Positions 2,025-50,815 of a stretch of 64,000 bases of DNA are shown here, one piece after another (within the stretch, counting starts at the first letter, position 1; each line of letters opens with the position of its first letter). The DNA lies in the sequence record OR352945.1. One strand, given 5' to 3'. The DNA comes from Escherichia phage AV115. A program made the position numbers and the translations under genes. Below the pieces are notes generated by a model. It worked only from the letters and a program-made list of their open reading frames with translations. It ran no database searches and was not told the origin of the DNA.

Positions 2025-2357
2025 TCACTTATAAAGACACGGAATAGCTTTATAGTGGCATGTTACGAATTTCTGTTTAATTTCTTTAGGTTGTTTAAGT
2101 CCCAAAGCCACAAATGGATGTGGAACATTTCGAATTTGTCCAACTGGTAGTGGAGTCAAATCACCGACTTCAACAAAACCTTCAGGAACATCAGGACCTA
2201 CAGAATGAACTACACATAGTTCAGGAACTTCACCTTGAACACGTTTACCAATCACAAGTCCTGATTCGGTAACTTCTTCATCACCTGCTTGAGCGGGTTC
2301 AGAAACCAGAATGACATATTCACCAACAGCACGAATTGGGAGTTGTACTTCAGACAT
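2025..2357 (-). CDS. 31: co-chaperonin gp31 (GroES analogue for capsid folding)
   Basis: 110 aa, near-identical to recalled T4 gp31 (MSEVQ...[22 protein letters not shown]...). Confidence 0.9.
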
Positions 2358-2414: not shown

Positions 2415-2723
2415 TTACATAAGAAGCAAACGTTCTACCGGAGTACCATCAACCGAAATTACTTTATCAAGGCGGAAAGAACGCCACTGACCTAACTCGG
2501 TATCGAATGCTCGAACTGATTCACGAGGTTCAGAACGAACTTCTGTTGATGGGTTACTATTTTCATATTTGACTTCAAGTTCGTCGCGGGAAGCAAACAT
2601 CGTACGAACATCACCGTTAGCCTTTTCAAATACAACACAATGAACGCCTACAGACAGAATAGTTTTAATACGTTCACGAAGAACCATAGTTTCTTGTTCA
2701 GTTAAAATCATATTATTCACCAC
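2415..2723 (-). CDS. hypothetical protein (102 aa)
   Basis: ORF between cd and gene 31. Confidence 0.45.
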   Translation of the reverse strand: MVNNMILTEQETMVLRERIKTILSVGVHCVVFEKANGDVRTMFASRDELEVKYENSNPSTEVRSEPRESVRAFDTELGQWRSFRLDKVISVDGTPVERLLLM

Positions 2724-3294
2724 AAAAGTTTCGAATTTGTTCCCAATTCAGAGAACGAAGATTATTACGAGAGTACTGAATTACTTCAATACCGGCTTTT
2801 TTTAGAATGTCTGCCCAATTTTCAGGAGATCGGTCATATAATTCTGCATATACAACCTTTTTAATACCTGACTGTGTAATAGCTTTAGTGCAATCAGGAC
2901 ATGGAGAAAGCGTCGTATACAACGTAGCACCTTCAATAGAATTACCTTTACGAGCTGCAAACAAAATTGCATTCAATTCCGCATGGATTTCGTTATTAGC
3001 AGACCATGCACTATGAGCGGCCCGATGTTCTTTAGCCAAAACAAAATTATCCACCCGTCCAAATGCTGTAGTGCCTTCTTTATGCCCAGCAACGATGACC
3101 GGGCTTGGTTTATTCTTCAACCAACCATTTTCGGATGCATGTTCGCAACAGTTTGTACCACCTGAAGGAGAGCCATTATAACCTGTAGAAATAATGCGTC
3201 CATCTTTTTCAATGACGGCGCCAACTTTCCATGAACAACATTTTGATTCTTGAGAAATCAGATAAGCAATCTGAAGATATGTGCTAGCTTTCAT
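2713..3294 (-). CDS. cd: dCMP deaminase
   Basis: 193 aa; cytidine/deoxycytidylate deaminase zinc motifs (CEHA...SPCPDC); T4 cd length. Confidence 0.9.
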   Translation of the reverse strand: MKASTYLQIAYLISQESKCCSWKVGAVIEKDGRIISTGYNGSPSGGTNCCEHASENGWLKNKPSPVIVAGHKEGTTAFGRVDNFVLAKEHRAAHSAWSANNEIHAELNAILFAARKGNSIEGATLYTTLSPCPDCTKAITQSGIKKVVYAELYDRSPENWADILKKAGIEVIQYSRNNLRSLNWEQIRNFCGE

Positions 3295-4286
3295 TATTGA
3301 ACCTTATTAATATAAGTTAACAGCTCTTTAGTTTGTTCCCAACTGATGCACGCATCGGTAATGGAAACGCCATAGGACATATTATCAGAAATTTTTTGAT
3401 TTCCTTCATGTAGGAATGATTCTATCATAATTCCTTTGACCAAATCATTAGCTGCTAAATTTTTACCAATACCAATTTGATTGCTATAATGCCCATCAGC
3501 GTTTGCATGGCTACAGTCAACCATTACATAATGATTCAGACCTACTGCCCTTGCTTTGTTAGAAGCTTCTTGAATATCAGAAGAATGATAGTTCGGGCCG
3601 TTGGTCCCGCCACGCAATACGATATGCGTATTCTGATTACCTTCAGCTTCAACAATGCCTACAGTACCATCGACGTCCATACCCATATACCGATGAGGCC
3701 AGGCGGCACTATACATCGCGTCTGTAGCTACTTTAATAGAACCATTGGTTGCGTTCTTGAAGCCTACGCACATCGGTAGACCTGAAGCAATTTCACGATG
3801 TGTCTGACTTTCAGTCGTACGGGCGCCAATAGCAACCCATGAGAAAATACCAGAAAGATACTTAATCGTGAATGGGTCTAATACTTCAGTTGCTAATGGA
3901 AGTCCCATACGTAGAAGTTTACGACACAATGTTCGTGCAACTATAAGACCGTGGTTCATATCAAAACTTCCGTCAAGATATGGATCATTTACAAGACCTT
4001 TCCAACCTACGGTAGTTCGAGGCTTTTCAAAATAAACGCGCATCACTAACAGAACATTAGGAAGACGAGTTTGAAGTTCAGCCAGACGTTTGCCGTATTC
4101 AACAGCAGCAATAGGGTCATGAATTGAACAAGGACCTACAACAATAAGTTTGCGTGGGTCTTCACCGTTCATAATCGAATTAACTTGTTCGCGATGAGAA
4201 GCCACTTGTGATGCGTAAGCTTCCGACAAAGGAATAATCTCAGCCAGTTCTTTTGGAGAAATAAGTTTTCCGACGACAGGTAACAT
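3294..4286 (-). CDS. 3-deoxy-7-phosphoheptulonate (DAHP) synthase, class I AroF/AroG/AroH-like
   Basis: 330 aa with blocks GPCSIHD, MRVYFEKPRTTVGWKGL, AIGARTTESQTHRE, VGFKN, DCSHAN, ITDACISWE that I recognise from E. coli DAHP synthases; ATG at 4284-4286 with TAAGGA RBS. Confidence 0.85.
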   Translation of the reverse strand: MLPVVGKLISPKELAEIIPLSEAYASQVASHREQVNSIMNGEDPRKLIVVGPCSIHDPIAAVEYGKRLAELQTRLPNVLLVMRVYFEKPRTTVGWKGLVNDPYLDGSFDMNHGLIVARTLCRKLLRMGLPLATEVLDPFTIKYLSGIFSWVAIGARTTESQTHREIASGLPMCVGFKNATNGSIKVATDAMYSAAWPHRYMGMDVDGTVGIVEAEGNQNTHIVLRGGTNGPNYHSSDIQEASNKARAVGLNHYVMVDCSHANADGHYSNQIGIGKNLAANDLVKGIMIESFLHEGNQKISDNMSYGVSITDACISWEQTKELLTYINKVQ

Positions 4287-4406
4287 AACAATCCTTAGGA
4301 GATATAAACAGATTCTGATTCAACAATACCTTTAACCGGATTAGACAGGCTAAGTTGGTAGTGCTCAGATTTATGACCATTCTCGATAGTAATGAGATAG
4401 CTCTCA

Positions 4407-47936: not shown

Positions 47937-47970
47937 AAAGGTATTCTATCATCCGAAATCTAAAGCAAAA

Positions 47971-47984
47971 AGGGCCGAAGCCCT
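47971..47984 (-). terminator. UUCG hairpin
   Basis: AGGGC-UUCG-GCCCU then U-rich tract on minus transcript. Confidence 0.45.
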
Positions 47985-48406
47985 TATTTAAATTTAATTT
48001 TCTGAAGTGCATCAATTGCAGCCAAACGCCCTTGTTCACTTTTAACTGTAACGACCACATCGCCTGATACGATCACCGAACCATCAACAAATTCTATAGA
48101 GCCTTTTTTGAAATCGACAGCTGTATCTGGTTCCGGAACTTCTTCAAAGAATTTAAATTCTGCACCATAAAGCAGAATATCACCTTGCATACTAATGATT
48201 GTACGTCCAGGTCCATCGGTTTCAGCGGCAATAATCGAAACGCCGTAACCAATCATCTCTTCCACAATAAAATCTTTGGACAATAAAGTAGTATGCAGAT
48301 TAGTATTAAGACGTTTACCAGTCGTATTAAGAATTCTCAAGAAATTATCTTCTTGTCCTTTGATAATACGATATTTCTTACCAACTTCAAAACCTTTAAA
48401 AGCCAT
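47984..48406 (-). CDS. hypothetical protein (140 aa)
   Basis: ORF followed by hairpin at 47971-47984. Confidence 0.45.
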   Translation of the reverse strand: MAFKGFEVGKKYRIIKGQEDNFLRILNTTGKRLNTNLHTTLLSKDFIVEEMIGYGVSIIAAETDGPGRTIISMQGDILLYGAEFKFFEEVPEPDTAVDFKKGSIEFVDGSVIVSGDVVVTVKSEQGRLAAIDALQKIKFK

Positions 48407-48408
48407 AA

Positions 48409-48588
48409 TTAACCCTTCTTAAGTAAGTCGTAAAAACCACCGTTCACATGTTTAGGAGCAGAAACCCGACGAGTAGACAGACGATGACATTCAGGGCAAA
48501 CATCGTTTTCTCGTTCAGAAATTCTTTTAATTTTTTCATATTCATGACCACAATCTTCAGATTGACATTTATAGTCGTATAACGGCAT
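48409..48588 (-). CDS. FmdB-like zinc-ribbon protein (59 aa)
   Basis: Hand-translated: [18 protein letters not shown]...CPECH; ATG overlaps upstream stop (TAATG); below track size cut-off. Confidence 0.5.
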   Translation of the reverse strand: MPLYDYKCQSEDCGHEYEKIKRISERENDVCPECHRLSTRRVSAPKHVNGGFYDLLKKG

Positions 48589-49019
48589 TATTGTTCCTTA
48601 AAGTGAGCTTTCAACATTTGATACAAAGACCATGCCTGGTCGTTATTTTCGATAGTAATCGTCATCACCGGAAATTCAGACAATTCATCAAGTTCACCAG
48701 AATCTTGCTCTTCGGACGCTTGATATGGATTTCCAACTTCGTCAAAGAATTCTGCTTCATTCGTGGAGAGCCAGATAAAGTTTTCATCAAGGATATCACC
48801 GCCTGTTGCGTATCCAACCGTGCCGGTAGATGTCACAATTTTAGTAGGACGACCAAGATGGTCAACATCTAATACTTTAAATGGTTCCATGCCAAGACGT
48901 CGTGCATAAATCCCATTATCAGTGTGGTCTTTAATAAACTCTTCTTGGACACGTTTATCTTTAAATTGATACCACGAGTTAACGCAGAATTTATTAGCCA
49001 TTAGTAAGTTTCCTTCCAA
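48588..49019 (-). CDS. hypothetical protein (143 aa)
   Basis: ORF only. Confidence 0.45.
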
Positions 49020-49869: not shown

Positions 49870-50289
49870 TTATGCAAAAGATGCTGGACAATATTTTTTG
49901 ATTTGGAACTCAGGAACTACCATGAACTGTCCAGCAAAAACAATGTTATAAAGCTTGACGCCATCTTCAACCCATTGGTCCGAAATAAAACCAGCAACTT
50001 GATTCGTTGTCCATGGAGACCCATCAGTTGCGGCAGCAATAGTAAATTCATGGTCTTTTACAACTAAAACTGACCTGCACAGTTTCCATTTGAACGCTTT
50101 TTCTTCTGGTTCAATGAACTGGCTTGAGACGTAACCAATGTTACCATTAACATCTCGAACTTTAACTTCGTTACGTCCAAAAACCGGATCACTCACAGAA
50201 AGAACTTCAACCAACTTCCCGGCAACTTTAGAGCGAGAAGCAACAGATACATATACGTAATCACCTGTAGAGAGATTCACAATATTCAT
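49870..50289 (-). CDS. hypothetical protein, tandem paralogue A (139 aa)
   Basis: Shares SxASRSKxAG, EVKVR, FKWxLC and GFISDQWVEDGxKLYNIVF blocks with the next ORF. Confidence 0.5.
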   Translation of the reverse strand: MNIVNLSTGDYVYVSVASRSKVAGKLVEVLSVSDPVFGRNEVKVRDVNGNIGYVSSQFIEPEEKAFKWKLCRSVLVVKDHEFTIAAATDGSPWTTNQVAGFISDQWVEDGVKLYNIVFAGQFMVVPEFQIKKYCPASFA

Positions 50290-50298
50290 AATAATTCC

Positions 50299-50754
50299 TT
50301 AAGCTTTACGAGGAGACACATAGCGAGTGATTTCAGATTCTTTAACAACTCGGAAGTCACCTAAGAATACAATATTGTATAACTTTTCACCATCTTCAAC
50401 CCATTGGTCGCTAATGAAGCCACACATAGTATCAGTTTTGCTTGGATAACCGTATTCATCGATGAAGTCAAATTCTTTATCAGTCTGGAATTCAACACCT
50501 TTACACAAGGCCCATTTGAACTGTACATTAGGTTCAGTAGAAGCAGATGGAGCGCTCACACGAGTTTCCAGGAATTTAGGACTTACGTAAGCGTACTGAG
50601 TATCCTGACGTCCAAAACTAGGAATGATTCGAACTTTAACTTCTTTAATACGTCCCATGCCATTTGTGCGAAGTCCGACAACTTCAACCAGACGACCTGC
50701 AGCTTTAGAACGAGAAGCTGTCGATACACGTTTAATTTCACCAATATTAATCAT
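50299..50754 (-). CDS. hypothetical protein, tandem paralogue B (151 aa)
   Basis: Start moved to ATG 50752-50754 (GAGAGA RBS) because early promoter at 50780-50815 covers the track start. Confidence 0.5.
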   Translation of the reverse strand: MINIGEIKRVSTASRSKAAGRLVEVVGLRTNGMGRIKEVKVRIIPSFGRQDTQYAYVSPKFLETRVSAPSASTEPNVQFKWALCKGVEFQTDKEFDFIDEYGYPSKTDTMCGFISDQWVEDGEKLYNIVFLGDFRVVKESEITRYVSPRKA

Positions 50755-50779
50755 ATTTTTTCTCTCTTTGTTTAAGTTG

Positions 50780-50815
50780 AATTCATTATACTCCAACCAT
50801 CCTTGGTTGTAAACT
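50780..50815 (-). promoter_or_regulatory. T4-type early promoter
   Basis: Minus strand GTTTAC, 18 nt, TATAAT. Confidence 0.55.

Follow-up and report, generated by a model that had tools for sequence, protein, structure and literature searches.

The T4-type protein gp39.2 (NwgI) modulates the host chaperonin GroEL (Ang & Georgopoulos, Genetics 2012), according to the summaries of that work in PMC5153855 and PMC4396842. As summarised there, gp39.2 shifts GroEL towards an open state that binds GroES or gp31, and the evidence for the shifts in conformational equilibrium and in GroES binding is both genetic and biochemical (PMC5153855, PMC4396842). The account of the gene in PMC5153855 further states that a T4 39.2 deletion is wholly blocked on specific groEL mutant hosts.

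Ruc (Rv0991c) of M. tuberculosis is a second small zinc protein with a link to chaperones. It binds one zinc ion through the arrangement C8xxC11-N17-C29xxC32, requires its disordered C-terminus, and is turned into a holdase by oxidation (PMC7448276). Ruc has DnaK as an interaction partner and is a member, with GroES/GroEL, of the HrcA regulon; in other phyla its gene adjoins dnaK, grpE, clpB, hrcA, and groESL (PMC7448276). The Ruc paper does not mention the Pfam family name, FmdB, phage, or 39.2 (PMC7448276), and our literature search found no paper naming both Rv0991c and bacteriophage T4.

Both proteins fall into a family that takes its name from FmdB, a putative formamidase regulator. The regulatory role of FmdB is only a proposal, and we know of no demonstration that it binds DNA. 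To our knowledge, gp39.2 and Ruc are the only members of this widespread family to have been studied experimentally. The gene that Ang and Georgopoulos first selected was reportedly the one from RB69, and the homologues from T4, RB43, and RB49 are said to have behaved alike. Here, we describe a locus of this type in the window, the whole stretch of 64,000 nucleotides of Escherichia phage AV115 (OR352945.1) that was analyzed.

Position and identity of the 59-codon frame

The window derives from an RB69-like T-even phage of the genus Mosigvirus. Its closest relative among the sequences compared is Escherichia phage AV118, with 99.0% identity over 20 kb. A preliminary description of this DNA had proposed a 59-residue frame on the minus strand that fills an otherwise unexplained gap and whose ATG overlaps the preceding stop as TAATG. 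On translation, the coordinates and length proved exact (Table 1), the goF stop and the new start have one base in common, and the gap is occupied by a named gene, 39.2. Length alone is meaningless here, because 47 open reading frames (ORFs) of at least 30 residues overlap the same 4-kb stretch.

The 39.2 protein is 100% identical to RB69p006 of RB69 (NP_861696.1, 'similar to T4 AAD42464') and to gp188 of HX01, and it is 82.5% identical to T4 gp39.2 over 57 residues (tblastn, E=1e-26). If the RB69 gene was indeed the one first selected, the product of the window gene is the very protein on which that work was done. With RB69 ORF006c and T4 39.2 (NwgI), the frame shares the slot between goF and gene 39, its length, strand, and Shine-Dalgarno sequence, and also the zinc-ribbon ligands and the GGFYD tail. 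A single synonymous difference separates it from the RB69 gene. We consider it very likely (probability roughly 0.8) that the 59-codon frame is the orthologue of the T4-type gene 39.2 (NwgI), encoding a GroEL modulator that consists of a zinc ribbon and a flexible tail. Gene 39.2 is thus already known: its name and function are in the literature, as are a deletion phenotype and a biochemical activity.

Table 1. Coordinates of the gene 39.2 locus and of other features discussed, by position in the window
Feature	Position	Strand	Basis or remark
Gene 31, GroES-like co-chaperonin (Cpn10 family)	2028..2357	minus	Protein 100% identical to RB69 gp31
Class I DAHP synthase, 330-aa ORF	3294..4286	minus	PF00793, E=4e-75
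Homing-endonuclease-like ORF, 227 aa	47253..47936	minus	Three NUMOD3 repeats; PHROG 'HNH/homing endonuclease'
MotA-box-like middle-promoter match (TGCTTTAGATTTCGGATGATAGAAT)	47967..47943	minus	Just past the hairpin and T-run
Intrinsic-terminator-like hairpin, AAGGGCTTCGGCCCTT then TTTGCTTT	47970..47985	minus	Probable transcription-unit end
140-aa ORF, RB69ORF005c-like (RB69p005), last gene of the unit	47984..48406	minus	phrog_622, E=3e-20
Probable gene 39.2 (NwgI) orthologue, CDS	48409..48588	minus	59 codons and TAA stop (48411..48409); translation, Pfam and TIGR matches, identity to RB69p006
C-terminal tail motif A44-D54 (APKHVNGGFYD), predicted flexible	48427..48459	minus	Alignment and pLDDT
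35-aa ORF with GTG start, in another frame (…NVIVCLLVGFLLLNM)	48444..48551	minus	Overlaps gene 39.2
Second zinc knuckle, C31..C34 (CPEC)	48487..48498	minus	Translation; predicted ligands
First zinc knuckle, C8..C13 (CQSEDC, C-x4-C)	48550..48567	minus	Translation; predicted ligands
goF stop, TAA	48588..48590	minus	Shares its final A with the 39.2 ATG (TAATG)
goF orthologue, 137 aa from the ATG at 49001	48588..49001	minus	phrog_622 and goF PHROGs; annotated goF in RB69 and T4
Shine-Dalgarno AAGGAA	48594..48599	minus	5 nt 5' of the 39.2 ATG, within the end of goF; read from the sequence
MotB-family paralogue	49870..50289	minus	PF17613, E=4e-22
MotB-family paralogue	50299..50796	minus	PF17613, E=4e-38
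Strong early-promoter-like site, TTTACA-17-TATAAT	50813..50785	minus	Just upstream of the MotB paralogues

The gene had been described as unannotated, which is not the case among its closest relatives: it is annotated in RB69 (as RB69p006), in HX01 (as gp188), and in AV118, where the same 180-nt CDS, with the same 1-nt overlap with goF, is entered as a hypothetical protein. It is named 39.2 in RB32, and the ECD7 record notes 'gp39.2'. Labels across records include 'FmdB-like transcriptional regulator', 'zinc ribbon domain protein', and 'hypothetical', and one T2 record calls the homologue a 'kilA anti-repressor'.

The two T4 records differ from each other. In the T4 GT7 record, 39.2 (58 residues, 2501..2677) carries no annotation. 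In the T4 reference NC_000866 (3703..3840 of the locus), the product carries the substitutions E25G and D28G and stops prematurely after 45 residues, and it is frameshifted relative to the 58-residue T4 GT7 protein. Old errors in the sequence are apparently the cause of this truncated form, which is also the one in UniProt Q01434.

A 35-residue ORF with a GTG start overlaps gene 39.2 in another frame (Table 1). Two database entries, P0007 and P0008, have odd C-termini that match this ORF. They are therefore probably 39.2 sequences with a frameshift, and the overlapping frame probably does not hold a second gene.

Family membership and selection

Membership in the FmdB-type zinc-ribbon family, as claimed from the sequence alone, was borne out by both family models. 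The protein scores 49.3 bits against Pfam PF09723 (Zn_ribbon_8; E=5e-13, gathering score 34.4), which was the zinc-ribbon search suggested earlier, and 48.0 bits against NCBIfam TIGR02605 (CxxC_CxxC_SSSS; FmdB family zinc ribbon protein; E=9e-13, cut-off 31.3). It also matches phrog_1076 (E=2e-12). A word-indexed homologue search returned 8 close matches only, and an exhaustive profile-free search of cluster representatives returned 252 at E<=1e-3. By tblastn, a match to the 39.2 protein was found in 955 phage records, with at least 80% query coverage in 912 of them.

Conservation in other T-even genomes, a further check suggested earlier, was found in the same slot. Compared with T4 GT7, the gene carries 22.8 synonymous and 13.2 non-synonymous differences, corresponding to a dN/dS of 0.071 (Nei-Gojobori); the value against RB32 is 0.066. 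Synonymous sites are near saturation in the T4-type comparison. The AAGGAA Shine-Dalgarno sequence before the gene is conserved in RB69, HX01, RB32, and T4. Gene 39.2 encodes a protein and is subject to strong purifying selection; the earlier claim of a real coding gene is upheld by scores above the Pfam and TIGR cut-offs, by occurrence in 955 records, and by a dN/dS of about 0.07.

Zinc ribbon, tail, and fold

The N-terminus of the protein, MPLYDYKC, fits the family start MPxYxYxC. The ligand layout is C8-x4-C13, followed by 17 residues and C31-x2-C34, and these four cysteines are predicted to bind zinc. The preliminary description had read the motif as CxxC-17-CxxC. The 17-residue spacer and the second CxxC stand, but the first knuckle is C-x4-C (CQSEDC), a spacing that is unusual.

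Conservation was assessed in an alignment of 25 gp39.2-type sequences. M1, C8, C34, P45, and G51 are invariant, and at least 90% of the sequences share P2, Y4, Y6, R26, A44, G50, and D54. C31 is present or displaced by one position in all 25, and all 25 have two ligand pairs lying 15-18 residues apart. The first knuckle is Cx4C in the T4 and RB69 types, CxC in the Moon type, and CxxC in the Miller type, and it is CxxH, with histidine as the second ligand, in Krischvirus ECD7 and Muldoon. The second knuckle occurs as CxC, CxxC, Cx4C, and Cx5C. Loss of the four cysteines in relatives had been named as evidence that would count against the motif; four ligands are always there, although His can take the place of one Cys and the spacings are not fixed.

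All 25 aligned sequences have the tail A44-D54 (AP..V/I.GGF/YYD), but most database representatives among them had been picked for having the motif. Five phage-locus sequences derived by tblastn, which were not picked for it, also carry the tail. The Ackermannviridae match IME250, which is more distant and has no tail motif, was left out of the alignment. Across 142 family representatives, a G(x)G-aromatic-aromatic motif located 46-53 residues from the start occurs in 66, against about 1 in shuffled tails, and is therefore a family-wide feature rather than a phage-only one. We infer that contact with the chaperone is made through the conserved tail. Genomic context was looked up for one of the family representatives, P0064, whose contig is virus-like and includes a gene for DNA polymerase B.

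An AlphaFold2 model built from a 42-sequence alignment has four beta strands. Its pLDDT is about 85 for residues 1-40 and 54-57 for residues 41-59. The 'SSSS' in the name of TIGR02605 refers to a C-terminal extension that is disordered or of low complexity; the tail here has low model confidence, but it is short at 19 residues, is not rich in Ser, and contains a conserved motif. Among viral models, T4 Q01434, listed as 'protein in Gp39-comCA intergenic region', ranks first in structural similarity (E=5e-6, TM 0.86). A sequence search of the PDB with the 39.2 protein returned bL31 only, at an E-value of 0.3 that is not meaningful. Foldseek against the PDB returned nothing below E=0.5 (MCM zinc sub-domain, RbpA, aRF1), and we draw no functional inference from these matches because they lie at E>=0.5 and are generic zinc ribbons. 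Neither search thus turned up a relative with an experimental structure.

Gene order, junctions, and expression

The gene order dexA - motB paralogues - motB.2 - cef - goF - 39.2 - ORF005c - gene 39 is the same as in RB69. The junctions between cef, goF, 39.2, and the 140-residue ORF measure -1, -1, and +2 nt. In Tequatrovirus, Mosigvirus, Moonvirus, Krischvirus, and Pseudotevenvirus, gene 39, for the topoisomerase large subunit, is preceded at a distance of a few genes by a 39.2 homologue on the same strand, which in T-even and RB69-like phages directly follows goF. In Muldoon(virus) the homologue is found in the same dda/dexA-motB-cef neighbourhood. In other genera, the junction is likewise tight, with different upstream genes, and ranges from a 1-nt gap to overlaps of 1, 14, and 20 nt.

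The junction reads GAA TAA nn ATG in RB69, HX01, T4, and RB32, and GAA CAA TAA TG in the window. A single T->C change has turned the old goF stop TAA into CAA (Gln), lengthened GoF by one residue, and formed TAATG. The goF stop of the window is thereby moved one codon, leaving a 1-nt overlap where RB69 has a 2-nt gap. The TAATG overlap is lineage-specific and not ancestral.

These observations bear on the translational coupling proposed in the preliminary description. The tight packing on goF is in its favour, but a need for it is not apparent: gene 39.2 has its own unstructured Shine-Dalgarno sequence, and the overlap is not conserved. The RNA around the 39.2 start has no significant structure (fold z-score 0.35). 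Given the unstructured start region and the lack of conservation of the overlap, coupling between goF and 39.2 is plausible but would be neither enforced nor required.

Sites resembling sigma-70 promoters number 26 in the region, including ones overlapping 39.2, against 26.9 expected from shuffles; since this frequency is that of chance, they were not used as evidence. Downstream of the 140-residue ORF, the hairpin with its T-run and the MotA-box-like site just past it (Table 1) would separate the 39.2 unit from the unit of the endonuclease and gene 39. An Rfam scan of the whole window returned no family.

The two ORFs flanking 39.2 both match phrog_622, a PHROG whose function is not assigned, GoF with E=5e-38 and the RB69ORF005c-like ORF with E=3e-20, and both also match goF PHROGs. 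The shared phrog_622 matches suggest an old duplication around 39.2. A direct BLASTP comparison of the two proteins is not significant (E=0.04), and the two would be distantly related at most.

Other features of the window

Upstream of the 39.2 unit, two MotB-family paralogues lie in tandem, with a strong early-promoter-like site just upstream of them (Table 1). Between the terminator of the 39.2 operon and gene 39, the window has a homing-endonuclease-like ORF whose 3' end overlaps the start of gene 39. This ORF is an extra gene relative to RB69, where it is absent, and is present in HX01; in AV118, a shorter hypothetical CDS of 408 nt (77500..77907) is the only one annotated at the site. Gene 39 is 82% identical to that of RB69, with flanks at 93-94%, as would be expected from sequence exchange associated with the endonuclease.

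A class I DAHP synthase ORF is located between cd and cd.2. The stretch of about 1.1 kb that holds it has no RB69 counterpart there, appearing as an alignment gap from 3297 to 4392 of the window. It may represent an auxiliary gene of aromatic-amino-acid biosynthesis in a T-even phage.

Gene 31, which encodes a functional partner of the GroEL machine, lies about 46 kb from 39.2 in the window. Our literature search found no paper linking 39.2 with goF, cef, or motB, or with gp31.

Proposed mode of action and alternatives

In the mechanism that we favour, gene 39.2 would be co-transcribed with cef, goF, and the 140-residue ORF in the pre-replicative region from dda to 39, and it would be translated from its own Shine-Dalgarno sequence, possibly aided by ribosomes ending on goF. 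The 59-residue product is predicted to form a four-stranded zinc ribbon (residues 1-40; predicted ligands C8, C13, C31, and C34) followed by a flexible tail of 19 residues. Judging from the published work on gp39.2, it would act directly on host GroEL and push it into an open conformation able to bind a co-chaperonin, either host GroES or phage gp31. GroEL-dependent folding would thereby be maintained in hosts with sub-optimal GroEL. The key GroEL client in T4 is the major capsid protein.

Among the alternatives, the one that fares best is that gp39.2 works as a Ruc-like holdase. The ribbon would then serve as a redox or stress switch, and on zinc loss unfolded proteins would be bound by way of the tail and passed on to host chaperones; the GroEL phenotypes would be indirect, through less misfolded load or better client delivery, with no allosteric shift of GroEL. 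The idea draws on Ruc itself, which binds zinc, needs its disordered C-terminus, is activated by oxidation, has DnaK as a partner, and is co-regulated with GroES/GroEL (PMC7448276). We compared the two proteins with a Ruc query covering residues 1-18, 23-40, and 42-49, rebuilt from published primers (PMC7448276). Like the window protein, the rebuilt Ruc passes both family models (PF09723, 49.4 bits; TIGR02605, 58.4 bits), and the window protein, too, has a tail, one of low confidence in the structural model. Direct similarity is nevertheless weak (BLASTP of the single pair, E=3e-4, 23% identity). The tail of gp39.2 has just 19 residues with a sharply conserved motif and no variable hydrophilic region, and some homologues that look functional have His as their second ligand. 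We rate this reading as unlikely on account of the published summaries, in which the GroEL-GroES equilibrium is affected directly: where they treat gp39.2, they speak of a shift in GroEL equilibrium and GroES binding, and not of holdase activity (PMC5153855, PMC4396842).

A role as an FmdB-like transcriptional regulator, which would bind DNA or RNA polymerase and alter early or middle transcription in the manner of motB and goF, is more improbable still. Pfam and TIGR searches detected the 40-residue zinc ribbon alone and no DNA-binding domain. The PDB fold matches that could point to such a role, including the sigma-binding RbpA and a YdjO-SigA model, are weak and not significant (E>=0.5). 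The neighbours motB, goF, and cef are transcription or RNA modifiers, which would suit a regulator, as would the RefSeq phage product name 'FmdB-like transcriptional regulator' and the placement of phrog_1076 under 'transcription regulation'; but the label is inherited from the family name, and both experimentally studied members act on chaperone systems. Since both characterized members act in proteostasis, the 'regulator' label is weakened, and the database label is probably wrong.

That the intergenic gap holds no more than an ORF arisen by chance or a pseudogene in decay, as the abundance of short ORFs in AT-rich DNA (the 47 noted above in 4 kb) and the treatment of 39.2 in T4 (unannotated in GT7, cut to 45 residues in the reference) might suggest, has practically no chance of being correct and is ruled out by the conservation pattern, given HMM E-values of 5e-13 and 9e-13, 955 records with the gene, a conserved Shine-Dalgarno sequence, a dN/dS of 0.07 with synonymous sites near saturation, and a deletion phenotype mentioned in the published summaries (PMC5153855, PMC4396842).

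Identification of gene 39.2, and with it the reading of its product as a GroEL modulator, closes a question, and its practical value lies in annotation: the experimentally supported label for 39.2 is GroEL modulator. The involvement of both studied family members in proteostasis argues against the inherited 'regulator' name, and the conserved tail motif is a place to look for chaperone contact. What goes beyond the known is only the family-level link between gp39.2 and Ruc and the conserved motif after the ribbon, to which we attach a modest probability. On this reading, which we regard as doubtful, GroEL modulation and redox holdase activity with DnaK could be facets of one ancestral accessory job for Hsp60/Hsp70, with the G-x-G-aromatic-aromatic motif (GGFYD) docking on the chaperone. 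If true, the many bacterial and phage proteins annotated as 'FmdB-like transcriptional regulator' would be misnamed, and the phage gene would descend from a proteostasis factor taken from a host and shortened.

Comparison with known systems

By HMM, the window protein belongs to the same Pfam and TIGR family as FmdB, but its gene stands without a formamidase or nitrogen-metabolism context.

GroES and T4 gp31 are likewise small GroEL-acting proteins, encoded by host or phage. Unlike them, 39.2 does not have the Cpn10 fold and is not a lid, and in the account given in PMC5153855, gp39.2 promotes co-chaperonin binding and does not replace it. The G-G-F-Y of the tail loosely recalls the glycine-plus-hydrophobic segment of the mobile loop (SGLVIG in RB69 gp31), a resemblance too short for statistics. 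Mimicry of the GroES mobile loop by the GGFYD tail may be put forward as a hypothesis only.

Ruc and 39.2 are alike in their MPxYxYxC start, in ligand pairs 17 residues apart, and in having a tail after the zinc ribbon, disordered in Ruc and predicted to be flexible in 39.2, with G-x-G-aromatic-aromatic just past the ribbon (VVFKG... in Ruc). Both have an experimental link to chaperone machines. The 39.2 neighbours are cef, goF, the motB paralogues, the homing endonuclease, and gene 39, with no chaperone neighbourhood of the Ruc type. Ruc differs from 39.2 in its canonical CxxC first knuckle and its long, hydrophilic, disordered C-terminus (PMC7448276), whereas the 39.2 tail has 19 residues and a fixed motif. 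Finally, Ruc is a bacterial, oxidation-activated holdase that works with DnaK, whereas gp39.2, as far as the summaries describe it, acts on the equilibrium between open and closed GroEL.
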